Positions 31,553 to 61,830 of a stretch of DNA of 64,000 nt are shown here, in pieces. Within the stretch, counting starts at the first letter, position 1. Every line of letters begins with the position of its first letter. The notes below the pieces were generated by a model that saw nothing but the letters and a program-made list of their open reading frames with translations, was not told the DNA's origin and ran no database searches. The position numbers were made by a program, and so were the translations under genes. Where the stretch lies: the NCBI GenBank assembly GCA_964474825.1, contig CAYYWQ010000001.1:65420-129419 (forward strand), written 5' to 3'. The DNA comes from an uncultured Candidatus Saccharibacteria bacterium. Its GTDB lineage: Bacteria > Patescibacteriota > Doudnabacteria > UBA920.

Positions 31553-32023
31553 ATGAAACAAAAAGGATTTACTTTAATTGAACTGCTTGTAGTAATTTCC
31601 ATAATAGGGTTACTTTCTTCAGTTTTATTTGTTTCCTTGAATAATGCCAGAGTAAAGGCCAGGGATGCAAAAAGGAAGTCCGAAATCAAGCAGATTGTTA
31701 CCGGATTGGTAATGTATTACAATGCCCATAATTCCTACCCGGCTAATACCTATAATGGTGCCTGTGGTACGGCCTTAAACGGCACTGACCTTATTTCTCA
31801 GGGGTTAATTAATGACGGAATAATAAAAAAAATACCATTGCCGCCTTCCAATTCAGGTCAATGCGGGGATTATTATTATTCCGGCACTTGGAATAATGCC
31901 CAAAGTTTGGCCATTATGACTAAACTGGAAAATGCTGATGTCGGGTGCAAGCCTTTTACCGGAGACCCAGACTGGTATATTTCCGGCTCCTACTGTAATG
32001 GTATTTATATTGTCACACAATAA
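31553..32023 (+). CDS. Type IV major pilin (PilA-like)
   Basis: 156 aa; MKQKGFTLIELLVVISIIGLLSSV prepilin motif; C-terminal Cys pair. Confidence 0.8.
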   Translation: MKQKGFTLIELLVVISIIGLLSSVLFVSLNNARVKARDAKRKSEIKQIVTGLVMYYNAHNSYPANTYNGACGTALNGTDLISQGLINDGIIKKIPLPPSNSGQCGDYYYSGTWNNAQSLAIMTKLENADVGCKPFTGDPDWYISGSYCNGIYIVTQ

Positions 32024-46500: not shown

Positions 46501-49218
46501 AACCGCGACGGCAGTATACAGTCCCGAACTTCCGACGGTTTTGGCAACACCAGGAACCAAGCCTTTTTAAATGGGTTTACAGCTACCCCGCTTGCGAATT
46601 TAAGCCAGTACGGAGTTCCTTATACAGACAAGCATGGCAACCCTATTGGCGGAAAATCCAGTTACAACCCTGACTATTATGTGGACCAGGATACTGCCAC
46701 GGCTTTGGCTAAGGCATTGGGCCTTGAGGCAGTGTTAGTTAGCCCGGGCGGTGGCATGTTTAACATGCCTCCTGAATGGGGCATAAGGCTGCCTAACGGG
46801 GATATAATGTCAGCGGGCTTAACAGCCCACATGTATTTGAATAATCCCGTATCGGCAGACGAGATAGTCCGGCAAATGGTTAAGGCAGCGGGTGGAACTT
46901 TTACGGGAGCTGATTTTGGATCGGGCCGGTTAAATAACGTCAGCTCTACAGGCGCAGGGTCCACAGGATCGGGAACTACAGCTGTGTTACCAACGGGGCA
47001 AACTTTTAGTTTTATAAATGTCACCACAGGCAACAGTTCCATATTTAAAGTCGGCGACACTTGGAGAATGACTGTAAAGGGAGCACCGGATACAGATGTT
47101 TTTGTTGTTACTAGTAAAAATGGAGGCGCATCGGAAACAGTTAAAATAGGAAGGACAGATAAAGTAACGGGCGAATTTACCGTTAGTAAAACAATTGGCG
47201 TGGGCGACGTGGGTAATTGGTCGGAAACTTGGAAAGTCGGGGACGTAACAGTGGCGCAATTTAGCTTTACAGTAACCGCGGCAGCGACCGCTTTGCCTAA
47301 CCCGGCGGAAGTTTCTTTTACTTTTGTAAATAAAACCCATCCCGGCGCTTCGGTGTTTACGGTAGGGGACGAATTTGAAATTACCTTTACCTCTACGCCC
47401 AATACCAAAGTTTACGTAACTACTAACCATAATGGTTTTATTTCCAGCGAAGAAAGAGGAATCACGGGAGTAACTGACGGTAAGTTTGTGACAAGGGGAG
47501 TTATGAAAACCGAGCACATTGGCGATTGGTCGGAAACCTGGAAAGTGGGGGATAAAATAATTTCCTCCTTTACCTTTAAAGTCCAGGCCTCTCCCAGCGC
47601 GGCTGCCGCAGCTTTTACCCTGTCTTCTTCAACAGTGGCTTTGGTGCCCGGGATGAGCTTTAATGTTTCTATCCAAAATGCCGGGACAGAACAATTTACA
47701 GTTACTTCTTCTAACCCAAACGCGGTTAAGGCAACACTTAACGGCGGATCCATTGTTTTAACAGCCGGATCTTTTCCGGGCAATGCCGTAATTACCGTGC
47801 ATCCTAATTCTGCCGGCACCGCTACGGACAAAGACAAAACAATTACGGTTACTGTGGCGACCCCCGGAACAGTGGTTGTTTCCGGGACAGTCAGTTCTTT
47901 GACCCTGTCAAAAACTACTTCCTCTGTTGCTGTTGGATCAACCGACACGGTTATTGCTTTGGTAGCCATGACAACCGGCGCCAACAATGGTAATGTTTCC
48001 GTTACTTCTTCTGACCCGGCAAAAGTTACGGCAAGTGTTAATACCGCAACCGGTGTTATTACCTTGCGAGGAGTAACCGCCGGGACCGCAACAATTACTG
48101 TGCATCCGTTGAACGCCACCGATGCTTCCAAAGACAAAGTTATTGTTGTAACCGTAGCGGGGACAGTTTCTACTGCTCCGGTGGTTTCCCAAATTACCCC
48201 AAATTCCGCAGCGCGGGGAGAACACGGGACATTTGTTATTACCGGACAGAATTTGCAAAATGCCACCCTTTCGTTTGTTAATTCCACAGGCTTAACTCTT
48301 TCCAATGTCCAGGTAAATGCCTCCGGTACACAAATTTCCGCTTCGTTAAGCATCGCAAATACCGCGACTTTGGGACTGAATATTTTAAGGGTTACTACAG
48401 CAACAGGAAGTGCGGATACTACTTTTACGGTGAACGCTGCCGCTGCTTCGACTGCCGATAAAACATCCACCGGAACCGGAGCTAAGGATGACTTGGTTGT
48501 AACCACCACAGGGGGCAGTACCGGAACTCAAGGTACCGGAAGCGGCGGCACAGTAACCTATACTTCTTCCGGGGGAGGAGGAATTGTTGCCGGGGTTACG
48601 CCTTTCTTTACCACCATAAACCCGCCGAATGCAGCGGTGGGACAAAGCTACGGCGCTTACATTCAGGCCGTGAGCAACTACCCAATGACTTTTTCTATTA
48701 TTAATGGCACATTGCCTCCGGGTTTGAGCATGAATGACGCGGGTTATATTAGCGGTACTCCAATGGCTACGGGCAGTTTTACTTTTACCGTTAAAGCGGC
48801 AACTAACCAGGGAGTTATTTCGACTAAACAATTTATTCTTGTTGTGGGCAATGCGGGCAGTGTGTCTTTCTCTTCACAATACGGCGGTGCAGTAGCCGGG
48901 GTCCAAACTTTCCAGGGCCTGCAAATGCCTTCAGGGTATTCGGCTTCCACGGGCGGGTTAAAAATGCCCGCGGGTTATCCGGCTTCCGAGGGAGGATCCG
49001 GCCTTCAAATGCCCGAAGATGTTGGCAGGGACACAGAAAAAAGCGGTAAAAGTTACACAGTTAAAAAAGGCGACACACTTTGGAAGATTGCCAAAGCAAC
49101 TACGGGGGATGGGCGCAATTGGCGTAAAATTTTAGCTGAAAACCCAAAGAGTTTAAGCAGTCCCGGTAATACCAAGACTTTAAAAGTTGGGGCAGTACTA
49201 AGTATCCCGCAAATTTAA
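43543..49218 (+). CDS. Giant surface protein with His-rich N-terminus, internal tandem repeats, Big_2/Ig-like domains and C-terminal LysM
   Basis: 1891 aa; alt start ATG 43651 gives MEQVKISRVKRNKKK…GLGLGASLIGG matching paralog; four ~180-aa repeats (TGLTxxDDINNSKxGTVSINGxxTVxNVT…); BIG2-like FTVTSSNPNAVKATLNGG; C-terminal LysM YTVKKGDTLWKIAK…VGAVLSIP. Confidence 0.7.
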   Translation: MDKKSPPNHTGHHPPHQKSSHSGHHGHHHSHNNNEAMEQVKISRVKRNKKKITSKEKVLAGLGLGASLIGGAGAVAPKPSQTQIVRSDDSQKTGASGKIKETIKNIFGVGKAKAAELTPEQQAALSILSSGLNPDGTPASQEDLAAANQIYYGQVYNNQSNVAGANAGVQNPADPDAGNNDEPPPANVGNDTQTPPATGVDLTGLTTVKDINESRTGTVNVNGVPTQLSVIGSDGRIFDNEGHEVTGNFSATELDAIRAAFNNDSNLANTGGGGTDGGGSGAGTGNDDQGAATTRIDTTGGRSVHQVYQNNQWVDAPEVGDTFIDSEGKTHRNVGSANGSPYWIVEGQETGDGTQEGEVRSTQEGGFLAYHNGDWTQPRPGDKFTDGSGLIYTFSQTLTAPGSWVLDDGQHTTDGQGIPLVSVGGVWQPVGQENNNQTPPGAAVIPAGLTVEDDINNSKKGTVSINGESTVINVTLDPYGSYHVYNDKGEEITSTIANVNDLGRAFFATDDNGGDETAHEGDVKSEGGLDYIYHNNQWVLKDGNVKIENGRHYHTEGGVWVEDQAEGEQPHEGESRSADGGIVVYHIDSNGNGQWTAPRSGDKFTDGSGFTYTFEKVLTEPGSWVMDNGQHTTNAAGEQLESQGGKWVVTGTVVLPSAVTIPTGLTLKDDVNNSKQGTVSIRGVNTVVNVTRDSDGNYHVYNEKGEEITSTITNLEELGNAFFRSGDGGGASGINLTGLRTTPDINRSRTGVIKINGVNTTLSMLSDGRIFDDRGQEITDTFSESDLAAIRAAFADDANLASVAREGDVRDDADGFHYTYHGTQWVLNDGQERTRNTFKERSLGGAWVLVDGQSATRDGFRYISRGGSFVLVDGQTKTENGKGYHTAGGVWVEDGAAGVSPEQAKINAAGASLSRGSLTPEAIQLGIKDMAEANSIYYTFYAQQQKSEMVTSGESPVDANGNVRTAAGWKQMGDGIYYNTKTGITSNRDGSIQSRTSDGFGNTRNQAFLNGFTATPLANLSQYGVPYTDKHGNPIGGKSSYNPDYYVDQDTATALAKALGLEAVLVSPGGGMFNMPPEWGIRLPNGDIMSAGLTAHMYLNNPVSADEIVRQMVKAAGGTFTGADFGSGRLNNVSSTGAGSTGSGTTAVLPTGQTFSFINVTTGNSSIFKVGDTWRMTVKGAPDTDVFVVTSKNGGASETVKIGRTDKVTGEFTVSKTIGVGDVGNWSETWKVGDVTVAQFSFTVTAAATALPNPAEVSFTFVNKTHPGASVFTVGDEFEITFTSTPNTKVYVTTNHNGFISSEERGITGVTDGKFVTRGVMKTEHIGDWSETWKVGDKIISSFTFKVQASPSAAAAAFTLSSSTVALVPGMSFNVSIQNAGTEQFTVTSSNPNAVKATLNGGSIVLTAGSFPGNAVITVHPNSAGTATDKDKTITVTVATPGTVVVSGTVSSLTLSKTTSSVAVGSTDTVIALVAMTTGANNGNVSVTSSDPAKVTASVNTATGVITLRGVTAGTATITVHPLNATDASKDKVIVVTVAGTVSTAPVVSQITPNSAARGEHGTFVITGQNLQNATLSFVNSTGLTLSNVQVNASGTQISASLSIANTATLGLNILRVTTATGSADTTFTVNAAAASTADKTSTGTGAKDDLVVTTTGGSTGTQGTGSGGTVTYTSSGGGGIVAGVTPFFTTINPPNAAVGQSYGAYIQAVSNYPMTFSIINGTLPPGLSMNDAGYISGTPMATGSFTFTVKAATNQGVISTKQFILVVGNAGSVSFSSQYGGAVAGVQTFQGLQMPSGYSASTGGLKMPAGYPASEGGSGLQMPEDVGRDTEKSGKSYTVKKGDTLWKIAKATTGDGRNWRKILAENPKSLSSPGNTKTLKVGAVLSIPQI

Positions 49219-49317
49219 GAGCATAAACTAACTAGCGGACCTAAAATTAGGTTTGAAAGTTTTAGCTTTGGCGACCGTGTGCTATAATAAAAACCAACGT
49301 AATTAATTTATAGACAA

Positions 49318-50136
49318 ATGAATCACACACATCATCATGCAGTAAAAGATCCGGAGGCCGGCACAACCGCGGAATATTGCGCGGAATGCGAAAGAGATTC
49401 AGGCTCCTCTTACTTTGTTCCCGGGGCGGTTTTGGTTGGCGCAATATTAATTTCCCTGAGCATTTTCTTTAGCGGAAAAATGGTGGTTGGCAAGCTGGAA
49501 AACAGCGTGGCCGCAGCGCCGAGCCAACCCGTTGCTCTAGGACAACCCCAGCAAGCCGCGCCTCAACAGCCCACAGGCCCGGTAAATGTCGCGGCGCGCA
49601 GCGACCAGCCAACTTTGGGAAACAAAAGCGCTAAAGTTACTATTGTAGAATTTGCTGATTTCCAATGCCCGTTCTGCAAAAAATATTTCGATGAAACCTT
49701 TGCCCAAATTAAGTCTAAGTATATAGAAACCGGCAAGGTTAAGTATGTTTACCGACACTATCCATTGCCTTTCCATGTTAATGCCCAAGTTGCCGCTGTG
49801 GCCGCCGAGTGCGCGAACCAGCAGGGGAAATTTTGGGAATATCACGACGTGTTATTTAAAAACGGCCAGGCCGACGGCACCGGTTTAGACAAGGCGAGTT
49901 TGGAAAAATACGCCTCTGACATGGGTTTAAATAACGGCACTTTGGGTTTTGGTAAAAATAAATTTAACCAGTGTGTGGACGGTAACGCGACTTTGTCTAT
50001 AGTGCAGGCTGACAATACCGAAGGCAGCAAAGACGGCGTAAGCGGTACCCCGAGCTTCTTTATTAACGGTCAACTTTTAGTAGGCGCCCAGCCTTACAGT
50101 GCGTTTGAACAAGCTATAGAAGCGGCGCTTAAGTAA
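49318..50136 (+). CDS. DsbA-family thiol:disulfide oxidoreductase, membrane-anchored, His-rich N-terminus
   Basis: 272 aa; MNHTHHHAV…, one TM, thioredoxin CPFC motif (FADFQCPFCKKYF). Confidence 0.8.
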   Translation: MNHTHHHAVKDPEAGTTAEYCAECERDSGSSYFVPGAVLVGAILISLSIFFSGKMVVGKLENSVAAAPSQPVALGQPQQAAPQQPTGPVNVAARSDQPTLGNKSAKVTIVEFADFQCPFCKKYFDETFAQIKSKYIETGKVKYVYRHYPLPFHVNAQVAAVAAECANQQGKFWEYHDVLFKNGQADGTGLDKASLEKYASDMGLNNGTLGFGKNKFNQCVDGNATLSIVQADNTEGSKDGVSGTPSFFINGQLLVGAQPYSAFEQAIEAALK

Positions 50137-50176
50137 TAAGAAGATTAAGACCTGCCCGCAGGCAGGAATAAAAAAT

Positions 50177-50205
50177 GGATGACCCAAGCGGTCATCCATT
50201 TTTTT
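50177..50205. terminator. Bidirectional rho-independent terminator GGATGACC-CAAGC-GGTCATCC + T7
   Basis: 8-bp stem between convergent genes DsbA (+) and YYY membrane protein (-); A-run upstream, T-run downstream. Confidence 0.7.
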
Positions 50206-52273
50206 AATATATTTTGTAGAGTATTTTATTTCCTTGTTGGAATACCGCAAGTCCTAATTGACTGAACTTTTCTTCCTGTAAAAGCGGGTATGCTTCGTGT
50301 TCCAGGGAGCCAATGTAAACATATTTTGCGTTAAATTCTTTTAACAGGTTTTTTGCCACCGCCAGATCCTTTGTTTCGTAAAGCAATTTAACTTTGTCGG
50401 CAGTTCCGGCTACCGCGCCGTAGCCGGTTTCCAGCTGCATACCCGGTTTAATTTTTACGCCTTTAGGCAGGGTAAAGCGCCATGTCCATTCATGACTTTT
50501 CCAGTTAATGGGACTTATGGTGCCGGCAAAAACCGCAAAGCGTCCGTAATCTGAGTAACTGTCGCCAACTGCTTCCACCAAAACCACCGGTTGTTTTTGG
50601 TTTTGTTGCAGCCATTTTATGGCCGCAAAATCCTCGGGCGCAATCTTCTCCATGTAATCCAAGCCGTCTAAGGTCCCTTTGGGAGAAGGATCGTCAACGT
50701 AAAATTGCTCAACAGCCTGATAAGGGTAGTACAGGCCGGACAAAAAAGCTAAAAACAAAATAACAATAATAAAATTTCTTAAAGCGCGGGAACCGGAGCT
50801 TAAAATGTCCGGCCGCATAAACAGACTTTTGGCAAATATCATGGAAGCTAAAACCAAAAGTGTCCAGGTATGGAAGCCAAATTTAAACACTGTGTTGGCG
50901 CGGAAGAATGGGGGATTGGCCAAAAAATAAATATCTTTAACAAAAAATAATTCCACGGCCACCAATAAAATTAAAGCGGTAATAGTTAAAATTTTGGCAA
51001 AACTTTGTTTTTCCGCCACGCGTTTTTTCCCGGCAATCCAGGCTAAAATAATAATCCCTAAAAACGCCCCCCACATCCCCAGCCAGCCCAAGATTGGGGA
51101 AGGGAATTGGTAGCCGTGGAGTAATTTATTTTGAGCGGCAAAAGCCGGCGCAAAACCAAAACCCGGGGAGCCGCTTTGGAAACTTTGGAGGAAAGGAGAT
51201 ATTAATATTACTGCCGCCGTGCCCGAAGCCGCAGCGCCAACAATTACCCACTTCGCGGATTTAACAGATTCAATTAAAGAAGGTTTGGAACCGTAAACTT
51301 TGGCAAAAACCAAAACGCCGGTTAAAATCGCAAGGGTTACAAAATCCCAGGGATTTATTAGGGCTTCGGTGGCATAAGTTAAAGTTAAGGCTGCAAGTAA
51401 AGTTTTGGAAGGTTTTTCAGATTCGTAAAAAGCATAAAGCAGGCACACGGCGGTTAAAAAGAAGATCAACGCTAAAAGGTGGGCGTGCAAATCGCCAACT
51501 GTAAAACTGTAGGACGGGATTTCGTTAATAATGTAAGATGGTGTGTAGAGCCTGGTAGAACTGGCATAACTGCAAATGGAGTCGGAGGTCATTACGCAAA
51601 CGCTGTAAGCCATTGTTCCGGAAATTGTAACAAAAAATCCGGCAAGGACGGAAAAGAATTTTGATTTGGAAACTTCATAAGTTAAAAGGCCACTAAGCAT
51701 TGCGGCAGTGGAAAAAATAATACCTAAAGTAAAATTGTAAGCTAGGCTATAGGTGTTGCGGGAAAGGTTTGCCAGCAAAGAAAAAAGATAGTGTCCGTAA
51801 TAATAGTAGTTTACGGTTTTGCCTGCCCACCAGCCGTCTTGCGGAGGGAAGTAATTGGCATGGCCGGAAGCGTTAAAAAGCATCATGTCCATAAACCGTT
51901 CCGTGCCGGAAATGGCCGGGTGGTAGCTGCGAACCCATAAGTACAGGAAATATAAAATAAGCCACAAGGCTTCAATTTTTAAAATAGATTTAATTGGGAA
52001 TGTGTAACCGCCATTTTTAAAAATTAAGTAAGCAGATCCGGCAAGGGTAAGTAAAAATAAAACAGAAATTATCCCAATTTTTTGGAAATCTAGGATTTTT
52101 AAGGAACCAAGAAGCCAGATAAAATAGCCAAAAATTAAAAAGCCCAGCGGCTTGGCTACGGCATAGGCTAAGGAAAAATTTTTAAATAATTTACGCGTTA
52201 AAAGCAGCCCCGGCAGGGTAAAGAGGGAAAAACAGGCGTAAAATAGAAAAGCCAGTAAAAGTTGGTAAAGCAT
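50204..52273 (-). CDS. Large polytopic membrane protein of the YYY (DUF2298) family, glycosyltransferase-like
   Basis: 689 aa; >12 TM helices; NYYYYGHYLFS motif characteristic of chlor_Arch_YYY domain. Confidence 0.55.
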   Translation of the reverse strand: MLYQLLLAFLFYACFSLFTLPGLLLTRKLFKNFSLAYAVAKPLGFLIFGYFIWLLGSLKILDFQKIGIISVLFLLTLAGSAYLIFKNGGYTFPIKSILKIEALWLILYFLYLWVRSYHPAISGTERFMDMMLFNASGHANYFPPQDGWWAGKTVNYYYYGHYLFSLLANLSRNTYSLAYNFTLGIIFSTAAMLSGLLTYEVSKSKFFSVLAGFFVTISGTMAYSVCVMTSDSICSYASSTRLYTPSYIINEIPSYSFTVGDLHAHLLALIFFLTAVCLLYAFYESEKPSKTLLAALTLTYATEALINPWDFVTLAILTGVLVFAKVYGSKPSLIESVKSAKWVIVGAAASGTAAVILISPFLQSFQSGSPGFGFAPAFAAQNKLLHGYQFPSPILGWLGMWGAFLGIIILAWIAGKKRVAEKQSFAKILTITALILLVAVELFFVKDIYFLANPPFFRANTVFKFGFHTWTLLVLASMIFAKSLFMRPDILSSGSRALRNFIIVILFLAFLSGLYYPYQAVEQFYVDDPSPKGTLDGLDYMEKIAPEDFAAIKWLQQNQKQPVVLVEAVGDSYSDYGRFAVFAGTISPINWKSHEWTWRFTLPKGVKIKPGMQLETGYGAVAGTADKVKLLYETKDLAVAKNLLKEFNAKYVYIGSLEHEAYPLLQEEKFSQLGLAVFQQGNKILYKIY

Positions 52274-52338
52274 AGGAGGTTTTGGTTGCTCCAGTTATTT
52301 TATCATATTTTAAAAGAAAATTGGCAAGATTTTAAGTT

Positions 52339-52367
52339 TTGACTTTGGGTTTAGGGGTGGTATAATT
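52339..52367 (+). promoter_or_regulatory. Sigma70-like promoter TTGACT-16 nt-TGgTATAAT
   Basis: Near-consensus -35 and extended -10, 35 nt upstream of ATG 52402. Confidence 0.55.
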
Positions 52368-52401
52368 AAAGTAATATAAATATTTTACAGAAACAAACAA
52401 T

Positions 52402-52914
52402 ATGGATAACAACATTCCAGTAACAAGCGCCCCAGTGCCGAGTGGAAATAAAAATTATATAATAGTAGGCATTGTTGTTTTGGTTTTGCTGGCAGCGGGC
52501 GTTGTGGTAGCTTTAAAGTTAAAAAATAAAAACAAGCCTGCTGAGCAGCAGACCCAAAACGAGCCTCAGGCAATCATAAATAGGCAAGAGGTTCCCAAAA
52601 CCGAGAGGCCGGCAAATGTACCCAAGGATATTCCGGTGGAAAAATCCGCGGAAATTACCGCCAACAACAACATTGAGTTTAACGGGATTAAGGAAGGTCA
52701 GACCCAGTACACCAGTAACAAAACTTTGGCGGAAAATTATAAAACCTATATGGATTATTTGGCCAAAAATAATTGGGAAATTGTTTCCAATATGGATACT
52801 GAAAATTTTAAGGCAATAACCGCCAGAAAAAATGGAGAAACTTTTAGCGGAATATTTGACTTAAATAGTACCACCGGAAAAGTAAACGTAAATATTATGG
52901 TAGAGAGTAAATAA
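52402..52914 (+). CDS. Hypothetical membrane-anchored secreted protein (paralog of 55941 gene)
   Basis: 170 aa; N-terminal TM; C-terminal ENYKTYMDYLAKNNWEI… region alignable with 55941 product. Confidence 0.45.
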   Translation: MDNNIPVTSAPVPSGNKNYIIVGIVVLVLLAAGVVVALKLKNKNKPAEQQTQNEPQAIINRQEVPKTERPANVPKDIPVEKSAEITANNNIEFNGIKEGQTQYTSNKTLAENYKTYMDYLAKNNWEIVSNMDTENFKAITARKNGETFSGIFDLNSTTGKVNVNIMVESK

Positions 52915-52925
52915 TTTTTTCCAAT

Positions 52926-52961
52926 AAAAAATCCCCTTCAAATTTTGAAGGGGATTTTTAT
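52926..52961. terminator. Bidirectional terminator ATCCCCTTCA-loop-TGAAGGGGAT flanked by A5/T5
   Basis: Perfect 10-bp stem directly after 52914 stop. Confidence 0.7.
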
Positions 52962-53008
52962 ATTTTAGGTTGTGGCATTTTGGTTGGTTAATTATTTAGA
53001 GAGAGGGT

Positions 53009-53063
53009 GGGGGAAGGTAGAGGCTAATACTCTAAACTCCTTCCCCCCGTGACAACTACGTCC
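53009..53063 (-). other. Shared 3' element copy 2: hairpin GGGGGAAGG-21nt-CCTTCCCCC followed by CGTGACAACTACGTCC
   Basis: Aligns with 37290-37334 (CCTTCCC-CGTGAC-ACTACGTCC, 21/24 with gaps, plus similar GGAAGG/CCTTCC stems); lies ~85 nt 3' of the 754-aa GC-rich gene. Confidence 0.45.
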
Positions 53064-53146
53064 AATCCCCGTACTTACGGGAAGCGGACGAAAAACATAC
53101 AAATGAGAAAGGTCGTGTGGGACGCTGTGGTCCCCAGTGGAAAAGG

Positions 53147-55411
53147 TCATGCTTGACCCTCCTCCACCGGTGGCGGATCGGCCGGCGGCGGTTCCGCGGG
53201 CGGATCGCTGGGTTGCGGTGTCGGTTCCGGTTCCGGGTTAGGCTCCGGTGTTGGAGCTGGTGACGGATTCGGATTTGGATCTGGTCCTGGTTGGGGTGGC
53301 TCTTGTCCTGCTGTATCACCCGGTGGCGGAGCCACCAAGGTCAGCTTAATCCATCCGCTGGACTTGCCGTCCGCACGAACCACACGCAGCCAGAGATCTC
53401 CTGGTGCCGGGTAATCCGCAGGGAGAGGTAAAAACATGGACTTGGTGTCGTTGAATGTTGCTGTCCACTTGGTGTGGTCCGCTAATTCAACAACGGCGCA
53501 TTCTGCCGAACAGCCAGGAGTTGTCAGGAAGTTTCCAAGGATCTGGAAAGTAACTCCGGGCCATAGCTCCGAGCGTTCGGGCTTTTCGGCATTTACCACC
53601 GATCCGATCTCGGGCGGAGGTTGGACAACCTCAACCTGAATCGGTCCTGCCGAGGCGGTGTTACCGCGAGCGGAAGCACGGACAGTGAAGCTGCCGTTTT
53701 CCATGGGCGTAAAACTAACACATTTGTCGCTGACGCTGTCAGCGGCACCGAAATCCCGGATGTCTCCGGAAATCCCGGCCCACGTAATGACCCACGTGGA
53801 GGGTTGTTCGCTGGTAGTGAAGCAAGCCGCAGTAGGCTTACCTAAGTCCAGCGAAGTCGGCGTCACCGTGAACTTGGTCACGGCAATAGGTCCTGGGGCA
53901 TTGGTCACGGTGATGTTGAGCGGCAGACTCCACGCAACACCTGTGTTGCGGTTGGTGGAATACGTCTGAAGCTCATAGTTACCAGCCTTGGGAACGTTGA
54001 CAACAGCGTCGTCGCTCCGAAGGATCTGGTTGGATTCGTACCCGGTTGCCTTAGTGTAGAGGACAGTGGTCCAGTCTACACCGAAACATCCGGCGCACCT
54101 TAGCGAGATAGGAGATCCCGCAAAGAAAGGTGCCTTCGTGGTCAGTTCAAGCAGGGGCTTGGGAAATACCAGCGGAACAGTCCCGCCGCCTTCCTTTGCT
54201 CCAGTTGCGTAAACCGTTCCGGCGTCGTCCATGTAAATGGAGCCGGCAACGATACCGTTGAGTTTGAACTTCGCCGTAACATCACCGGGTAAAACCAAAT
54301 TATACGTCTGGCCTCCGGTTTCCTTCAGGATCAGCTTGCCCGGTCCTGGAGGATCAAAGGATGTTGGGAACGTGAGGAAGGCGATTCCGGCGGCGCTAGT
54401 CGCTGCCGAAGATGCTTTGAGGTTTTGTGCTCCCGAGGTACCTCGAGCTACGAGGGTAAGCTTGAGGGTGACGGGATCCAGAACTGCGAGTGCGTTGGCA
54501 TCAAACCTTGAAGAGCTGATTGCTATAGCTCCGTTCGGTCCTGCTGACAAATAGCAGCACTCTACCGAGTCCTGGAACAGAAAGTCGGTCGCCGAGGTTA
54601 CAGCTAAGCGCGCACCGCCTGCGAGTCCGACAACGTAGACGTTGTCGTGATTCAGAGCAGCACTAGTTGTAACTGCAAAGTAGTCGCCGGTGGCAACTAC
54701 GTCTTTTATAACCAGACCTAGAGACCAAGGCGTTACATCAGCGATCTCACCACCTTCTGGGGGGATTTGAAAAATCCGCCAGTTGCCTTGGAGGTAACAG
54801 CTCGTATAGAGCTTGCCGTCCTTGGCAAGATTGACTGTGGTGAATTGCGCCGGGATGCCCAGGGTTTTAACTATGGTTTCTTCGCGCAGCTTGAAAGGAA
54901 AGAGCTGGCGATTGTTGAGGGGGGAAAACACCCTTAGATCAGCTGTAGACACTGTGAAGATCGTGTCATCAAGCCACCCGAATTGTGGAGATCCTGTGAC
55001 GTCGCTGATTGTGGAGACTGCCACATAGCGGTCGTCAACAGAGAGGTTGCCCATGAACGGATCGACATAACTTGCCGGCCCTACATGGTAAAACAACAGT
55101 TTGCCGCGCCGTTGACCTGGATTTGGTAGGCCAGCTTTTGCGGCCAACTCTTCCATGGTTCCGACATATTGCATCGAGGAATCAATCCCTTTGCGGAGCA
55201 CGTAGAGGGAGTGCTCTCCCGTAGCGGTACCCAGCACACAAGCCCTGGTAAGGCGTGTTGATGAGCTCCTGCATTGAAAGGCTGCAGGAAGGCCGTCTAA
55301 AGCAGTATCGACCGAGACGAATCGCCCCGGAACGATACCGACTTGTTGTGACCAAGCGTTACCACTAAAAAGCAGTAGTAACACTAAAAGAGATGCAAGT
55401 TTGAGCTGCAT
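53147..55411 (-). CDS. Large secreted protein encoded by GC-rich island, Pro-rich C-terminal tail
   Basis: 754 aa; signal peptide MQLKLASLLVLLLLFSGNAWS; ~58% GC; GGAGGTGA RBS 5 nt before ATG; C-terminal PEPNPEPEPTPQP tract; no recognised domain. Confidence 0.55.
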   Translation of the reverse strand: MQLKLASLLVLLLLFSGNAWSQQVGIVPGRFVSVDTALDGLPAAFQCRSSSTRLTRACVLGTATGEHSLYVLRKGIDSSMQYVGTMEELAAKAGLPNPGQRRGKLLFYHVGPASYVDPFMGNLSVDDRYVAVSTISDVTGSPQFGWLDDTIFTVSTADLRVFSPLNNRQLFPFKLREETIVKTLGIPAQFTTVNLAKDGKLYTSCYLQGNWRIFQIPPEGGEIADVTPWSLGLVIKDVVATGDYFAVTTSAALNHDNVYVVGLAGGARLAVTSATDFLFQDSVECCYLSAGPNGAIAISSSRFDANALAVLDPVTLKLTLVARGTSGAQNLKASSAATSAAGIAFLTFPTSFDPPGPGKLILKETGGQTYNLVLPGDVTAKFKLNGIVAGSIYMDDAGTVYATGAKEGGGTVPLVFPKPLLELTTKAPFFAGSPISLRCAGCFGVDWTTVLYTKATGYESNQILRSDDAVVNVPKAGNYELQTYSTNRNTGVAWSLPLNITVTNAPGPIAVTKFTVTPTSLDLGKPTAACFTTSEQPSTWVITWAGISGDIRDFGAADSVSDKCVSFTPMENGSFTVRASARGNTASAGPIQVEVVQPPPEIGSVVNAEKPERSELWPGVTFQILGNFLTTPGCSAECAVVELADHTKWTATFNDTKSMFLPLPADYPAPGDLWLRVVRADGKSSGWIKLTLVAPPPGDTAGQEPPQPGPDPNPNPSPAPTPEPNPEPEPTPQPSDPPAEPPPADPPPVEEGQA

Positions 55412-55413
55412 CT

Positions 55414-55466
55414 TTCACCTCCGGGGAAGAGGGATCAAGGTTGATCCAACCTTTCCCGGAGGTGAA
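55414..55466. repeat. 12-bp perfect inverted repeat TTCACCTCCGGG…CCCGGAGGTGAA around the start of the 754-aa gene (carries RBS in both orientations)
   Basis: Read directly; inner GGATCAA-GG-TTGATCC palindrome. Confidence 0.75.
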
Positions 55467-55565
55467 ATGAAAACACTAAAACACATTACTAAACACGACA
55501 AAAATCGAGATTTGTTATCTCGTTTCTCATTTGTATTTCCTCCATTATTCTCACAAGGTTTTCAT

Positions 55566-55599
55566 TTCTCGAGCCTTTCCGGCCGGAAAGGCTCGAGAA
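55566..55599. repeat. Perfect 34-bp palindrome TTCTCGAGCCTTTCCGG|CCGGAAAGGCTCGAGAA
   Basis: Read directly; followed by hairpin AAATCAGC-CCCC-GCTGATTT (55611-55630). Confidence 0.85.
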
Positions 55600-55940
55600 T
55601 ACACACGCTAAAATCAGCCCCCGCTGATTTGTATTCACGTGATTGTATACAAACCAGCCATTGGGACTAAAGTACTATAAAATAGTAGCGAGGCAGGTCA
55701 AGAAAACCTATGCGATATTTTAACGTGCTGAAAATACTATAAAGTATTTCTTAATTTTTGTCAAGTTTTAGATTGTGGATAACTTTACCATTTTTGGAAC
55801 GAATAAAAACGGTTTTTATAGTTGTCTTTATAATTTTTGTGGTATAATAAAATCACTACAGAACTACGAATTTATTGCGCTACCGATGCCTACAGAAAAA
55901 TGCACTTAATTTGTAATTGTCTAAAATTTAGAAACAAAAA

Positions 55941-56489
55941 ATGGATAATCAAATAAGAATAAATACACCAATGTCTCCGGCACCTTTACCGCCAAAGTCC
56001 CACAAAGGCAATGCCATTGCAGCAGTTGTTTTAGCTATGGTTGTTATTGCCGGTGGCTTAGTGTGGTGGAATAACAAAAAACCCAATACTACTAATAATC
56101 CTCCTGTGGGTTCCCAGCCAACCCCTACTCCCACTCCTTCAACAGACCCTGTGCATTTAAACGCGGCAAATCCCGCTCCTGCTCTGTTTCCTTTAAAAGT
56201 TCCTTTGGAAGCGGAAGGAAAAGTTATAAATACCATAGACGAGCCTACCAAGGCCCAACGTTCTTTTATTAGCAGTAAAACTGTAGAAGAGAACTATAAT
56301 CTTTATAAAGATTATTTTGAAAAAAACGGTTGGACAATTACGGATCGCCCTGAACCTACCGGCGTCACCGGTCAGGCTTTTGACGCTACTAAAAATAATT
56401 TAAAAGCTTCCTTTGAAACTAAAGCTAATAAGAGCGGCGTGGTTACCGTAAACATATATTTTACAGTAGTACCTCCCAAAAATAACTAA
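55941..56489 (+). CDS. Hypothetical membrane-anchored secreted protein (paralog of 52402 gene)
   Basis: 182 aa; N-terminal TM, Pro/Thr-rich linker, conserved C-terminal domain. Confidence 0.45.
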   Translation: MDNQIRINTPMSPAPLPPKSHKGNAIAAVVLAMVVIAGGLVWWNNKKPNTTNNPPVGSQPTPTPTPSTDPVHLNAANPAPALFPLKVPLEAEGKVINTIDEPTKAQRSFISSKTVEENYNLYKDYFEKNGWTITDRPEPTGVTGQAFDATKNNLKASFETKANKSGVVTVNIYFTVVPPKNN

Positions 56490-56497
56490 AAAGCACA

Positions 56498-59400
56498 ATG
56501 TCAATAAGTAAGACCAAGCTTGTCACTACAATAATTTTTACTTTTTTTGCGTTAGGCGTTGTTTTTGCAACGGGTTATTATAACAACAGTGGATTTAAAG
56601 CTACCTCCTTTAGTTCAAAAATTTTATCAACTGCCTACGCCCAAAATTGTGACGGCTTTTGTGATTACAGGTGTGGTACTCCATGTGAGAGCAGTCCAAA
56701 CTTATGTGGGCGGACGAATACCGGGACTTACGATTGTTCCGGGTACTGCCCGGGCGTGTATCAGCCAAATGATCCTGAGACGGGTTACGGAGATACGTGT
56801 ACTTCAGCTTCAGCGAATAATTGCGGCACTTATGGTATAGGCTATATGACCTGTAGCGGCGGCAGCGACAATTTGTATTGTAATGCCGTAAAACCTGCGG
56901 ACGGCACCATTGCTTGTACTTCGGACTCCAATTGCAGCGACCCCGATGCCTGTACAACAGACAGGTGTAATAATGCAGGTTCATGTTCTTCTTATTGCAG
57001 TAATATAAGTAATCCTATTAATGGCGACTGGTCAGGATGGGGAACCTGTAGTAATACTTGCGGCAGCGGCACCCAAACTCGTTCTTGTAATAACCCTTCC
57101 CAGGCTTGCGGGGGTAGTAATTGTGTGGGGTCGAATACCCAGTCATGCGAAGATTACAGTACCTGTTCATATAATTGGCAAACAACCGCTTTTGACAGTT
57201 GTTCAGTGTCTTGCGGCCCGGGAACGCAAAACCGAAGTGTGGCCTGTGTGCGCAGCGACGGCACTCAGGTTGACGACAGTTTTTGTCCGGGCGCGAAACC
57301 TGCTATTTCACAACCTTGCAACAACGGAGCGTGCGCGTCGTGTACACCGGACGGGAGCTGTAGCGCTGCAGCACCCTCATGTGAACAAACAACCTATGGT
57401 TTAGACAACTGCGACAATCAATGTCAAAAAGTGGGAAGCTCTTGTTCCACATGTGTTTCCGATGCTAATAGTTGTGATGCTGCTACGCCACCTTGCGGCC
57501 AAACTACAACTGGGCTTGATAACTGCAATAGGTCTTGTCAAAAAACAGGCCCTTCTTGTAGTGTTACAGTAACCCCCTCCAATGGAGTCACTCCAACTCC
57601 TGATTACTCTCAAGGGTCAACGTCGGTTTCTTGTACTAGCGATGACCAATGCGCGTTTTTAAACGCTACGGCTTGTAATAAAAATGCCAGATGCAACGCA
57701 GGGTTTTGTCAGGCTGAGCCAAGCTGTTTTGCTTGTAGGTATGACTCAAGCAAACAATTAAGCGAAAGATATTCTTGTTCCGATACTTTAACATTCTGGG
57801 GAGCTACTACATTAGATACATGCTGGAGTTCTTGTAATCCTAACCATCTTTCTCCACCATCTTCTTGTGATACAGCCTGTTATCCTCAAGGGCCCGCGGC
57901 GTATGGCTCCGGTGTGCAGGATGGGTGTGGCTTTTTGGCCACTGACGGAGGGACAAGTTGTGTGGAAGTTGACGGCGGTACTTGGCACTATACCTTAACC
58001 ACTTGGACAAAATTAACCTGCAACGGTCAACAGCATACCCTAAACAATGGGGTTTGTAGTAATAATACATCAAGCTGCACTTTTACTATGAATCAACCAG
58101 GTTCTTCCTCCACTGGAGGAGCAGATGGTCCTTGTCCCGGAGGAGCCGGTCCCTCTAGCGGGGCTGTTTGCGGAAACCACAATGTAGAAAGTCCTGAAAC
58201 TTGTGACGACGGAAACCTGGTAAACGGTGATGGTTGCGACAAAGATTGCAAATTAGAAAAAGTAATTACCGTAAGCGCCCAGCCTACGTTTTTGTCTATT
58301 AATCCGGGTAACAGCGCGTTGTATGTTTTAACTTCGTCTTCTTTGGGCGCGCCTATTGCCAATGCAAAATTTACTTTTACAGGCGGTTGCCCTTCCGGCG
58401 CCACCTGCAGTTTTAATGCCAGCGGCAATTCTACGGACACCAAAGCTTTTAGCAGCAACTCGGCATCTACAAATTTAACTATTACTAATACGACAACTGT
58501 TGTGGCTCCCCAAACTAGGAGCTTAACATTTAAAGTGGAAGATTCTTCGTGCTCCGGCCAAGTTGGGTGTCCGACGGCGACTGGGATTGTAACTTTAGAC
58601 ATTGCTTCTAGTGCTTCCCGAACAATTAAGGGTAGTAAAGTTATAATGCCCGGAAACCAAGCTATTGCCCCGGCCGCGGCACAGGCAGTGAGTTTAGACG
58701 GCGGCTCCCCAACTACGGCTAATCCTTACATTTTTTCAAATGTTTCTTCGGGTAATCACACGGTTTCTGTTCCCAACATAAGCGGTTACAATACGGGTTA
58801 CACTTTGTGTTACAACGGCACTACCTGCCATAGCACTACAACCCCAACTGCGGGCAATAGTGTTGTGGTAAGTGTCCCGGCGGGAGGGTATGCGGATTTA
58901 TGGTGGCACTATACCCCGAGCGGCGGCGTTACTGCGGACTTAAAAGGCACTGTTTGGACAAATAGCACCCGTAATACGGCTTGGGGCGGATACAGTAATA
59001 TAGATGGGCCGGTTATTGTTTACGAAACCGCACCTTATGGTTTAACTTGGACAAGCAATGCGACAACATGTCTTTTGGATGGAGTTTCTGTAACTCCAAA
59101 TAGCAGTAACAATACTTACACCGCAGGCACAAATACCTGGACCCGTGTGCATACCTTGGCTTGCACCAGTGCTGCCGGCTCTGCAAGCGACACCTTTACT
59201 ATTTCCATACCACCGCCTCCAACCAACCCGGGCGGAAGTTGCGGGGGAGCGGGTACTTCGCTTTCGCTTTCTTGGTCTGCCCCGGCCGGGTACAATAGTT
59301 TTTATGTCCGTGTTGTGGATTTAGCCAACAACTCCGTGTTCTTTTATACAAACGACAACTATTCCGGTACAACCATAACCGTGCCGAATACAATAAGCGG

Positions 59401-61135
59401 ACATACTTATTCCTGGTGGGTTCATACCAGGAACGCGGTGCAGGGCGCTTACAGTACTGCCGTAGGTACAAATGTTGTTTGCGGAACAATTGTCGCGCCT
59501 CACATTTCCTTGGCTGGCGGTCCATTTAACTTTAGCGGCTACTCCGGCGGGCCAACCCCGGCCTCGCAGAATTCCTTAACCTTAACAAACACTGTTAGCG
59601 GAACCACTTTAAAATGGAAAGCATCAACCGACCAGTCCTGGTGCCACGTTAGTCCGACCACAGGTACACTTTCGAACACTTCGCCGGTTAATTTAACCTT
59701 AAGCGTAGACGCGCCTTCAAGGGTTACCACTGCCCAGTGTAACGTAAAAGTTGAGGACAATAGTTCTTCCCCGGCGGCAGACAACAGCCCTCAGACCGTG
59801 GCGGTTACTTACACTGTTGCCAGCTGCGCGGATTATTTGGTCCCTGCGTCTAATAACAGTACCGCAACTTTTACCAACATTACTTCAAACGGTTATACAA
59901 TTAACTGGAACCCCAACAGCGGTCCTGTGGACAATTGGTATGGTTATAAAGCGCGCTTACGCTTTGCGGCAAGCTCGGCCGATGCTATTAGCTGTAACCC
60001 GGGAGTTAATAGTTGCATAGTAAAATTTGATACTAACTCAGCCATTTCCAGCTATACAGTTACCGGCGCCTCTCCAAACACAACCTATTACAACCGCATT
60101 CCTGCTGTATGCTGGGACTTTAACGACCTCTATAATCCTGCCGGTAATCCGGCCGCCGCGGAAAACCAAAATAACGGTTATAACCAGCTGAGGTTTAAGG
60201 ATAATACGCCGTATCCGACAGTTACAACTTTGGCTTCAACCCCTGTTAACCCTATAAATCCGGGAAGCTGTAATTCCCAAACTAGCTGCGCCAGCGGTGG
60301 CGGTACCCCAGCTTGTGCCAACGTCCGTTTCCAGTTCACCGACAATTCCACAAACGAAGACGGCTTTAAAATCTACAAAAATTCCGTTAATTCTACTTCC
60401 AGCGCGGCGTTAATAAAGACTATTACCAGCACCACAGTGGCCTCCACCGGACAGAAATATACATACGATTATGATTTGGCCGGCGATACAGCAGTTTATT
60501 ATTACTGGGTAACTGCCTTCAGTTCTACCTTGGGGCAGTCCGCGTACTCGTCCATGAATTCCATTGCCGCTTTTATTTGCGGGCCGACTATTATCAATTC
60601 AGACAAGGAAATAGTAAAAATCAACGGAGCTACTATTAATCCCGCGCCCACTGCCTGCAACCAGGACAGTACCCCGCTGCCGTCTTATATTGTTCCAAAA
60701 CTCGACGACGTCCTAACCTTTTCCGTTAATATTTGCAATACTAACGGTTCAACTGTCCTTACCGGAATTACAGTCAGCGACACGCTAGTTAATTTGATTA
60801 TGCCTACCAGCGGTTGGAATATGTGTTTTACCAGGACTTATGGAGATTGCTCCGTGGGTACTCCAATTACTACTGTAGGCAGCGGCAGCGGCAAGTATAC
60901 AGTGAGCGGTAATACCTTAAATATTAATTTAACCGGCAGCTCCTTCAATATTCCGGCCGGACAGTCCGCCTATATAATGCTGGACGCGCAATTGCCTAAT
61001 AATACCAGTAGTCGTTTGTTCCAAAACACAGCCAGTATTAATTACACCGGGTCAGCCGGAGCCTTAGACGTGTTTACACCCTTCCAGCAGTTCCTAAACG
61101 GCGCCAACGCCCCAATTATTAGGGAAAGACCATAG
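56498..61135 (+). CDS. Giant Cys-rich extracellular protein with thrombospondin type-1-like repeats, Myxococcus-type Cys-rich repeat and DUF11-like C-terminal repeats
   Basis: 1545 aa; signal/TM N-terminus; WSGWGTCSNTCGSGTQTRSC (TSP1 consensus WSxWxxCSxTCGxGxxxRxC) at aa 178-197 and second TSP1-like WQTTAFDSCSVSCGPGTQNRSVAC; CGNHNVESPETCDDGNLVNGDGCDKDC; C-terminal TVLTGITVSDTL DUF11-like. Confidence 0.7.
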   Translation: MSISKTKLVTTIIFTFFALGVVFATGYYNNSGFKATSFSSKILSTAYAQNCDGFCDYRCGTPCESSPNLCGRTNTGTYDCSGYCPGVYQPNDPETGYGDTCTSASANNCGTYGIGYMTCSGGSDNLYCNAVKPADGTIACTSDSNCSDPDACTTDRCNNAGSCSSYCSNISNPINGDWSGWGTCSNTCGSGTQTRSCNNPSQACGGSNCVGSNTQSCEDYSTCSYNWQTTAFDSCSVSCGPGTQNRSVACVRSDGTQVDDSFCPGAKPAISQPCNNGACASCTPDGSCSAAAPSCEQTTYGLDNCDNQCQKVGSSCSTCVSDANSCDAATPPCGQTTTGLDNCNRSCQKTGPSCSVTVTPSNGVTPTPDYSQGSTSVSCTSDDQCAFLNATACNKNARCNAGFCQAEPSCFACRYDSSKQLSERYSCSDTLTFWGATTLDTCWSSCNPNHLSPPSSCDTACYPQGPAAYGSGVQDGCGFLATDGGTSCVEVDGGTWHYTLTTWTKLTCNGQQHTLNNGVCSNNTSSCTFTMNQPGSSSTGGADGPCPGGAGPSSGAVCGNHNVESPETCDDGNLVNGDGCDKDCKLEKVITVSAQPTFLSINPGNSALYVLTSSSLGAPIANAKFTFTGGCPSGATCSFNASGNSTDTKAFSSNSASTNLTITNTTTVVAPQTRSLTFKVEDSSCSGQVGCPTATGIVTLDIASSASRTIKGSKVIMPGNQAIAPAAAQAVSLDGGSPTTANPYIFSNVSSGNHTVSVPNISGYNTGYTLCYNGTTCHSTTTPTAGNSVVVSVPAGGYADLWWHYTPSGGVTADLKGTVWTNSTRNTAWGGYSNIDGPVIVYETAPYGLTWTSNATTCLLDGVSVTPNSSNNTYTAGTNTWTRVHTLACTSAAGSASDTFTISIPPPPTNPGGSCGGAGTSLSLSWSAPAGYNSFYVRVVDLANNSVFFYTNDNYSGTTITVPNTISGHTYSWWVHTRNAVQGAYSTAVGTNVVCGTIVAPHISLAGGPFNFSGYSGGPTPASQNSLTLTNTVSGTTLKWKASTDQSWCHVSPTTGTLSNTSPVNLTLSVDAPSRVTTAQCNVKVEDNSSSPAADNSPQTVAVTYTVASCADYLVPASNNSTATFTNITSNGYTINWNPNSGPVDNWYGYKARLRFAASSADAISCNPGVNSCIVKFDTNSAISSYTVTGASPNTTYYNRIPAVCWDFNDLYNPAGNPAAAENQNNGYNQLRFKDNTPYPTVTTLASTPVNPINPGSCNSQTSCASGGGTPACANVRFQFTDNSTNEDGFKIYKNSVNSTSSAALIKTITSTTVASTGQKYTYDYDLAGDTAVYYYWVTAFSSTLGQSAYSSMNSIAAFICGPTIINSDKEIVKINGATINPAPTACNQDSTPLPSYIVPKLDDVLTFSVNICNTNGSTVLTGITVSDTLVNLIMPTSGWNMCFTRTYGDCSVGTPITTVGSGSGKYTVSGNTLNINLTGSSFNIPAGQSAYIMLDAQLPNNTSSRLFQNTASINYTGSAGALDVFTPFQQFLNGANAPIIRERP

Positions 61136-61287: not shown

Positions 61288-61830
61288 ATGAAAAATAAAA
61301 AAACCACGGGATTTACATTGCTTGAGGTCCTTATAGTTTTGGCAATTATAGGGGTTTTAGCGTCTGTGGTTATGCTTGCGTTAAAAAGGAGCCGGCTTAA
61401 AGCTGCTAATGCTAAAATTCAAACCACAGTGCACCAGTTTCAAATAGCTTCGGAGTTGTATTTGGCCGACCATGGTGGTCAATATGTAAGAGTGTCTTCT
61501 TCTAATATTCTTCCAGGATGGGATATGAGTTCCCAGGGAAATTTTTTGCCAGAACTTAAGCCTTATATGGCCCAGGAGATTGAGCATCCAAACAACATAG
61601 ACAGTTATTTATATATTAATTTTCAAGACGTAGACGCTAATCCTTACAACGCCATTTCGGAAGCCTTTAGAAATGGGTGTTCATCAAAAGTGAAAGCAGT
61701 GCTCGTTTATGATTTTATTGGGGATGATCCCAATAACCCACAAACTACAGTAATAGATAGCTCCTGGCCGGTGTGTCATTCCTCTTACGGTGGGTCACCC
61801 TTAGATTTTAATTGCCTATGCCTTAATTAG
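61288..61830 (+). CDS. Type IV pilin
   Basis: 180 aa; MKNKKTTGFTLLEVLIVLAIIGVLASVV prepilin motif; C-terminal Cys pairs. Confidence 0.75.
   Translation: MKNKKTTGFTLLEVLIVLAIIGVLASVVMLALKRSRLKAANAKIQTTVHQFQIASELYLADHGGQYVRVSSSNILPGWDMSSQGNFLPELKPYMAQEIEHPNNIDSYLYINFQDVDANPYNAISEAFRNGCSSKVKAVLVYDFIGDDPNNPQTTVIDSSWPVCHSSYGGSPLDFNCLCLN

Follow-up and report, generated by a model that had tools for sequence, protein, structure and literature searches.

The window analysed here is a 64,000-nucleotide stretch of a contig from an uncultured Candidatus Saccharibacteria bacterium (Patescibacteriota; Doudnabacteria). Near its end it contains a gene for a large cysteine-rich protein with two thrombospondin type-1 (TSP1) repeats (TSRs), below called the TSR protein. 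A preliminary description made from the sequence alone gave this open reading frame (ORF) as 1545 codons at 56498-61135, rich in cysteine, and this is exact. The protein has 88 cysteines (5.7%), of which 64 are situated in residues 1-600. Every other ORF of at least 150 codons in the window has at most 2.6% cysteine, and the two other giant proteins, of 955 and 1891 residues, have none. These two cysteine-free giants are encoded on the plus strand at 39603-42470 and 43543-49218, respectively; the larger one has a His-rich N-terminus and a LysM domain at the C-terminus. A protein identical to the TSR protein (P0001) is carried by a 1.21-Mb NCBI contig. The features of the gene are as follows.

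56498..61135, plus strand: whole gene, ATG start, stop codon included; 1545-residue secreted Cys-rich multidomain surface protein
56498..56578, plus strand: candidate signal peptide or signal anchor at the N-terminus (residues 1-27); no other segment is hydrophobic
56639..56911, plus strand: first block of an unnamed repeat of about 36 residues with four cysteines (4-Cys repeat), residues 48-138, without Pfam match
57017..57169, plus strand: TSP1 repeat A, thrombospondin-like, residues 174-224, with WSGW, CSNTCG, six canonical cysteines and the extra C204
57170..57340, plus strand: TSP1 repeat B, ADAMTS-like, residues 225-281, six cysteines
57341..57556, plus strand: second block of the 4-Cys repeat, residues 282-353, with the pattern at residues 288 and 326
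57557..58162, plus strand: Cys-rich region, residues 354-555, without family assignment, common only to the orthologue P0117 (34% identity)
58163..58267, plus strand: Myxococcus-type cysteine-rich acidic repeat (TIGR02232 / DUF4215), residues 556-590
58268..60544, plus strand: stalk of beta-rich modules, residues 591-1349
58613-58918, plus strand: mobile 'GGYADLWWHY' module within the stalk, residues 706-807, beta-rich, ending in ...GGYADLWWHYTP
60545..61132, plus strand: C-terminal CnaA/CLIPPER(DUF11)-like domain, residues 1350-1545, with the conserved tail ...APIIRERP-COOH

The two strings quoted in the preliminary description as TSP1 repeats are both present: WSGWGTCSNTCGSGTQTRSC begins at residue 178 and WQTTAFDSCSVSCGPGTQNRSVAC at residue 228. 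The curated Pfam cut-offs are 21.6 bits for TSP_1 (PF00090) and 23.8 bits for TSP1_ADAMTS (PF19030). In a Pfam scan of the whole protein, TSP1_ADAMTS scores 46.3 bits (E 5e-12) and TSP_1 scores 25.3 bits in two stretches (E 1.7e-5). The check proposed in the preliminary description, a search for a significant TSP_1 match, was run on isolated copies and passed with both of them. Copy A alone (residues ~177-223) scores 28.5 bits with TSP_1 (E 1.8e-6), and copy B alone (residues ~227-279) scores 28.6 bits with TSP_1 and 54.7 bits with TSP1_ADAMTS (E 1.2e-14). The best phmmer match among all PDB sequences is TSR2/3 of human thrombospondin-1 (1lsl, E 5.4e-10), followed by ADAMTS-5 and UNC5D.

The query repeats were aligned with two human TSRs (TSR2 and TSR3) and five from bacteria. 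Invariant in this alignment are two Trp, a Ser, the Gly of CGxG, the strand-B Arg and two Cys. Copy A has all six canonical cysteines (C183, C187, C197, C209, C217 and C223), and its W178, W181 and R195 occupy invariant columns of the Trp layer and the strand-B Arg. Copy B also has six cysteines (C235, C239, C251 and three more) and keeps W228 and R246, with Phe in place of the second Trp. The Trp/Arg layers of the query TSRs are fewer than in TSP-1. The extra C204 of copy A co-occurs with the upstream Cys167, in this lineage only. In canonical TSRs of group 1 the disulfides are C1-C5, C3-C4 and the dispensable C2-C6 (Tan et al. 2002, PMC2173040). The degenerate TSR of a relative, P0030, has lost exactly C2 and C6, whereas the variant TSR in another protein, P0063, has lost exactly C1 and C5. 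Since the TSRs of relatives lose cysteines only as canonical partner pairs, the disulfide framework is indirectly supported.

A search with the non-TSP part of the query yielded an orthologue, P0117 (1343 residues), collinear with the query at residues 134-705 (37% identity), 808-1137 (40%) and 1334-1545 (33%). The order of TSR-A, TSR-B, myxobacterial repeat, stalk and C-terminal domain is the same in the two proteins. However, in P0117 CARDB takes the place of BACON, the myxobacterial repeat is present in three DUF4215 copies instead of one, and the module at residues 706-807 has no counterpart. Both TSRs are retained in P0117 with scores above the cut-offs (34.8 and 30.3 bits). They are among the better conserved parts of the N-terminal half, with 51% identity in TSR-A and 46% in TSR-B against 28-35% in the flanking Cys-rich segments. 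P0030 has the same neighbourhood and C-terminal domain as the query but a different N-terminal half, with a single TSR, the degenerate one.

One could suppose that the TSP1 matches are an artefact of a Cys/Gly/Ser-rich low-complexity region that does not have the TSR fold. The region is indeed biased (13 Cys per 100 residues), copy A has just two Trp and one Arg of the layer residues, and single-sequence AlphaFold2 (AF2) modelling of the TSR pair, residues 149-291, gave a poor result (mean predicted local distance difference test, pLDDT, 46.6). However, each copy separately exceeds the Pfam cut-offs with two independent models, the phmmer matches to TSP-1 structures are corrected for bias, the orthologue keeps both repeats above the cut-offs and better conserved than their flanks, and the variant TSRs lose cysteines solely as canonical partners. 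Chance resemblance is thus extremely unlikely and effectively refuted. Judging by their sequences, the two TSP1 repeats are genuine TSRs.

The majority of TSRs in the databases are eukaryotic, and many of the top-scoring matches are cnidarian or mollusc proteins. The GC content of the TSR-coding segment is 0.53, compared to 0.48 in the gene and 0.44 in the window. These observations would be expected if the segment resulted from eukaryotic contamination, a recent transfer from a eukaryote or a chimeric assembly. On the other hand, the eukaryotic matches score high by summing many repeats, and the nearest single-repeat relatives include proteins of bacterial architecture, P0053 (PA14 and DUF4215) and P0063. 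The TSRs and modules of bacterial type (TIGR02232, BACON, the CLIPPER-like domain) are fused in one unbroken ORF, and independent assemblies place the same gene within the same block of seven bacterial genes. We consider this origin very unlikely. As regards an ancient transfer between eukaryotes and bacteria, domains of 50 residues cannot resolve its direction or age. The comparisons with relatives indicate that the TSR gene is a native bacterial gene, vertically inherited within the lineage.

The statement of the preliminary description that TSP1 repeats are rare in bacteria holds in the sense that their occurrence is sporadic; they are not, however, unknown there, and by their sequences bacterial TSRs are not unique to this lineage. 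They occur in a RefSeq protein of Sphingomonas sp. 3-13AW (WP_422513524.1), already named 'thrombospondin type-1 domain-containing protein', in MBU1046767.1 of a Patescibacteria group bacterium, which was matched in our search, and in metagenomic contigs of prokaryotic style. About twenty matches have partners that we class as bacterial-style: LruC, He_PIG, DUF1573-type Ig, DUF4215, PA14 and CBM6. P0063, with five TSRs, adjoins nusA, pilB and pilC. A metagenome scan keyed only on TSR patterns yielded a mixture of eukaryotic and prokaryotic TSR contigs and no further orthologue. A literature search for TSP1 repeats in bacteria or Patescibacteria gave nothing relevant, the one 'thrombospondin' match concerning type-3 repeats, and the terms thrombospondin and TSP are absent from the main text of a survey of adhesive domains (PMC9210967). 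The TSRs do not point to a eukaryotic host, and a general caution follows, that 'eukaryote-like' TSRs in bacteria need not imply one.

Two observations concern these other bacterial TSRs. The TSRs of P0063 (1429 residues; contig L028, 8001-12290), located upstream of pilB- and pilC-like genes, are variant ones (GGWSDWSAKNTTCGYSGTQTRTC...) without C1 and C5; the contig is bacterial and comes from the sample JGI 3300037810, whose identifier is listed in a landfill-virome paper on landfill metagenomes. TSR ORFs with Tat-like (RRxLL...) or lipoprotein (LASC) signals were found in L034 (9521-12667), L035 (3947-7093) and L031 (5104-7095). These contigs are fully coding and have 61-65% GC, which suggests the presence of TSP1 repeats in unrelated bacteria outside the Candidate Phyla Radiation (CPR).

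The TSRs are embedded in other Cys-rich modules. The pattern C-x5-7-C-[GE]-x3-6-G-x2-4-C-x2-4-C of the 4-Cys repeat occurs at residues 63-84, 288-309 and 326-347 (56684-56749, 57359-57424 and 57473-57538 in the window), and no Pfam or NCBIfam model describes this repeat. The first block is 41-44% identical to tandem repeats of P0107 and of the Patescibacteria protein MBU1046767.1 (P0109), and the second block aligns to the same two proteins. There are at least 15 tandem copies in P0107 and three in MBU1046767.1. The Myxococcus-type repeat had also been predicted correctly. The pattern CxxxxxxxExCDDGNxxxGDGCxxxC is found in residues 556-590, TIGR02232 (myxo_disulf_rpt) scores 37 bits at residues 558-588 against a cut-off of 20.8, and the same repeat matches Myxococcota loci. 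Proteins of Myxococcus with TIGR02232/DUF4215 carry arrays of the repeat, whereas the query has one copy.

Within the stalk, fn3 domains were found at about residues 906-995 and 1124-1204 (29.3 bits) and BACON_2 at residues 1024-1085 (29.8 bits), all above the cut-offs, and an fn3-like segment precedes the C-terminal domain. The module at residues 706-807, without family assignment, is 56-68% identical to modules of many proteins from Patescibacteria metagenome-assembled genomes, is missing in P0117 and is tandemly duplicated in L001. Module relatives come mostly from such genomes of Woykebacteria, Levybacteria, Woesebacteria, Gottesmanbacteria and Sungiibacteriota. From this distribution, residues 706-807 appear to behave as a mobile module of CPR surface proteins.

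The only part of the TSR protein with Kyte-Doolittle hydropathy above 1.6 (windows of 19 residues) is residues 5-27, and signal-peptide-like N-terminal segments also begin the orthologues and family members. With a candidate signal peptide and a stalk of Ig-like/fn3 modules, the protein has these two marks of fibrillar adhesins (PMC8286594 / PMC9210967). Scans of the domain libraries detected in it no adhesive domain other than the TSRs and no catalytic or known ligand-binding domain. Readings as a toxin, an enzyme or a defence protein were rejected, as no such domain was found in any of these scans.

The preliminary description had predicted DUF11-like repeats at the C-terminus. The kind of domain agrees with our models, but the number does not, as there is a single domain. 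A profile of this domain, built from the last ~200 residues of three relatives, was searched among 1.84 billion proteins and matched 199 cluster representatives at E<=1e-3, 128 of these at E<=1e-10. The proteins range from 112 to 4289 residues, and in 144 of the 150 among the matches listed the domain ends at most 5 residues from the C-terminus. The consensus of the family tail is ...P-x-[IRK]-x-E-[VIT]-(A)P, with no transmembrane (TM) segment. In 39 diverse members the invariant positions are, in query numbering, S1368, K1370, D1428, N1510, P1539 and E1543; no role is assigned to the invariant E1543 and P1539. The AF2 model made with the family alignment is confident (pLDDT 92.5, predicted template modelling score, pTM, 0.87) and matches the folds of Cna, SdrG, RrgB, PrgB, SpaP and the CLIPPER structure 9ifr, having the features of a CnaA-like Ig fold. 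The invariant Lys is on the first strand of the model (residues 20-26), the Asp on a central one (75-82) and the Asn on a late one (158-166). CnaA-like domains, including DUF11/CLIPPER, contain an Asp-catalysed Lys-Asn isopeptide bond between the first and the penultimate strands (PMC12617251). The domain is predicted to have the CnaA/CLIPPER (DUF11) fold, and the model leads us to infer an isopeptide bond Lys1370-Asn1510, which would be catalysed by Asp1428.

When matches below the thresholds are included, TIGR01451 is found in 25 of the 39 members, PF01345 in 12 and TIGR04226 in 5. The passenger modules of the family include PA14, GLEYA, BACON, InlB-B and cadherin-like Ig; 48 of 120 members (40%) are Cys-rich, and TSR-like modules are present in only 5 of the 150 among the matches listed. 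All named members come from Patescibacteria. Judged from these members, from the relatives of the modules and from the contig of 1.21 Mb, the protein most likely belongs to a small-genome bacterium of the Patescibacteria. Compared to Gram-positive CnaA-type adhesins and pilins and to CLIPPER (9IFR; PMC12617251), the query has no LPXTG or known sorting signal, and its domain is single, longer (~190 vs ~120 residues), always terminal and below the thresholds of the DUF11 hidden Markov models (HMMs), with the P-x-I-x-E-x-P end.

Three neighbouring genes of the TSR gene are as follows.

55941..56489, plus strand: small single-TM protein, 182 residues, ending 9 nt before the TSR gene; 35% identity with its positional counterpart in L029
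49318..50136, plus strand: DsbA-like thioredoxin-fold oxidoreductase (Thioredoxin_4 E 1.5e-34, DSBA E 1.5e-16)
50204..52273, minus strand: DUF2298 / chlor_Arch_YYY polytopic membrane protein (PF10060 E 6e-77; TIGR03662 366 bits), 70% identical in L029

The order of seven genes in window positions 43543-61135 is the same as in the contig of P0117 (L029, 1-14032). Identities are 60% in the LysM giant, 62% in the DsbA-like protein, 70% in the DUF2298/chlor_Arch_YYY protein (minus strand), 48% in the first small TM protein, 26% in a secreted protein of ~750 residues (minus strand), 35% in the second small TM protein and 37% in the TSR protein. In the contig of P0030 (L026), DsbA is 63% identical and three modules of the query are shared; the DsbA-like gene is thus syntenic and 62-63% identical in both contigs. 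The gene for the second small TM protein is immediately upstream of the giant gene in all three loci, overlapping it in L026 and L029, and is probably co-transcribed with the TSR gene. Scans for promoters and terminators gave nothing above the shuffled expectation. To judge from these alignments, the TSR gene changes at a much higher rate than the genes around it and takes part in module exchange. Divergence is by far the fastest in the two large secreted proteins of the block (26% and 37% identity, against 60-70% in the rest), the two small TM proteins are paralogous, and the DUF2298 protein is conserved beside genes of Ser/Thr-rich surface proteins.

Taking these data together, we consider it moderately probable that the TSR protein is a Sec-exported, fibrillar-adhesin-like surface protein that has the TSRs in a disulfide-rich head, followed by a stalk of beta-sandwich modules and a terminal isopeptide-type domain. 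The extracellular location is supported by the single N-terminal hydrophobic segment, the 5.7% cysteine content and the conserved DsbA neighbour. The head would comprise residues ~48-590, that is, the 4-Cys repeats, TSR-A, TSR-B, the unassigned Cys-rich region and the myxobacterial repeat. These modules would acquire their disulfides outside the cytoplasm, the probable catalyst being the DsbA-like enzyme whose gene has a conserved place a few genes upstream. They would form a ligand-binding head whose probable ligand is on a partner cell or matrix. The TSRs themselves, as compact modules with three disulfides, may serve for recognition or as spacers and may have been recruited by a bacterial surface protein that evolves rapidly. 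The beta-sandwich modules (591-1349) would serve as the stalk. The C-terminal domain, stabilised by the putative isopeptide, probably retains or assembles the protein at the cell surface, and the small TM protein encoded immediately upstream may assist in this. A shared role in surface retention or assembly is suggested by the fact that the domain terminates about 200 otherwise different proteins with the conserved ...P-x-I-x-E-x-P end.

Several observations speak against parts of this explanation, in addition to the poor single-sequence model of the TSR pair. The net charge of the query TSRs is acidic or neutral. A basic groove has been proposed as the recognition face of TSRs by Tan et al. 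(PMC2173040); as the query repeats are, by contrast, acidic or neutral, binding of glycosaminoglycans or of the CD36 type, as in eukaryotes, should not be assumed. PF01345 (DUF11) was not detected by Pfam in the whole protein or in the isolated C-terminal domain, and for the latter TIGR01451 (E 1.1e-3, 18.9 bits against a cut-off of 24) and TIGR04226 (E 1.8e-3) are sub-threshold. Profiles of the C-terminal domain had no significant match among PDB sequences. Neither LPXTG nor a C-terminal TM segment was found in the TSR protein, in which nothing is hydrophobic past residue 27; its last residues are ...GANAPIIRERP, unlike those of sortase-anchored (LPXTG) proteins. For the C-terminal domain, an anchoring role is suggested only by the fact that its position is invariably terminal. 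Finally, DsbA is six kilobases from the TSR gene with divergently oriented genes between them, and thus the link is one of conserved co-location and not of an operon.

A type IV pilin-like gene (61288-61830; N_methyl E 6e-8) begins 153 nt downstream of the TSR gene, several more pilins are encoded in the window, and the TSR-rich P0063 is directly upstream of pilB and pilC. One possibility is that the TSR protein is an adhesin displayed on the type IV pilus or working with it. However, the downstream pilin has its own promoter-like site, and in both syntenic loci there is no adjacent pilin, the following genes being TraG/TrwB-like and AAA ones. The Pfam and NCBIfam scans found no N_methyl (prepilin) match in the TSR protein, and so it does not look like a type IV pilin; its C-terminal fold matches pilins and adhesins of the sortase type instead. 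Association with the pilus is therefore quite unlikely.

Another possibility is that the protein is not an adhesin but a structural protein of the envelope, or one associated with an S-layer, or a scaffold capturing glycans for nutrient scavenging, with the Cys-rich modules serving for stability only. The library scans, with no catalytic or known ligand-binding domain, agree with this; BACON and fn3 are frequent in glycan-handling proteins, DUF11 domains occur in archaeal S-layer-associated porins (PMC12617251), and the gene is conserved alongside the LysM giant and the polytopic membrane protein. On the other hand, fast evolution (37% identity vs 60-70% in the neighbours) and module shuffling characterise exposed interaction proteins more than structural lattice proteins, and other members of the C-terminal-domain family bear classic adhesin modules (PA14, GLEYA, cadherin-like). 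We regard a purely structural or scavenging role as rather unlikely, though less so than a link to the pilus. Returning to the surface adhesin, the interpretation in the preliminary description of the gene as a host-attachment factor is, as a whole, partly supported.

The TSR protein is an unusual addition to known classes of proteins and not a new kind of system or mechanism. Copy A and human TSP-1 TSR2-3 (1LSL, PMC2173040) have in common WSxW, CSxTCGxG, the strand-B Arg, six canonical cysteines and a length of ~50 residues. The identity of copy A to human TSR2/3 is 39-51%. The TSR of TSP-1 has three Trp, two Arg and a basic groove, whereas copy A has two Trp, one Arg, the extra C204 and an acidic or neutral charge, and is bacterial. 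We know of no bacterial counterpart of the C-mannosylation and O-fucosylation of TSRs. According to PMC6954052 and PMC9198472, these modifications stabilise eukaryotic TSRs.

WP_422513524.1 and MBU1046767.1 are, like the query, large secreted bacterial proteins with Pfam-significant TSRs, and MBU1046767.1 also has the 4-Cys repeat. However, they are not orthologues of the query: the alignment is confined to the TSR and 4-Cys modules (3-12% of the query), the C-terminal CLIPPER-like domain is absent and the remaining architecture differs. TRAP and MIC2 of Apicomplexa are TSR-bearing surface adhesins of obligate parasites. They resemble the query in that an organism dependent on other cells has a TSR in the external portion of one of its surface proteins. 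TRAP combines a vWA domain and a single TSR, which binds sulfated glycans, with a TM helix and a motor-coupled cytoplasmic tail. For the query, neither the vWA domain, the TM helix, the tail nor the binding of sulfated glycans is present or shown.

The attachment of ultra-small Patescibacteria to their partner cells is largely unexplained, and the surface proteins of these bacteria are mostly unannotated. This lineage maintains a disulfide-rich surface protein of animal-type (TSP1) and myxobacterial modules beside a conserved DsbA-like enzyme. The TSR protein and the ~200 variable surface proteins with the common C-terminal isopeptide-type domain are concrete candidates for attachment proteins. 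A more far-reaching conjecture, which we think unlikely, is that the C-terminal domain with its ...P-x-I-x-E-x-P end is an undescribed retention or assembly module of Patescibacteria that replaces LPXTG-type sorting and carries interchangeable heads, the TSR head attaching the episymbiont to its partner cell. If it were true, the sequence of this family could be used to search for the attachment proteins of the CPR and for what they bind.

In the window, neither a tRNA nor any Rfam feature was found. It also carries purM, purD, purF, purL, a Pif1-type helicase and several prepilin-type genes; the pilin-like genes and other giant proteins noted in the preliminary description are confirmed. The prepilin-type (N_methyl) genes are located at 23436-27417, 31553-32023 and 61288-61830 and include one of 605 codons with CarboxypepD_reg.

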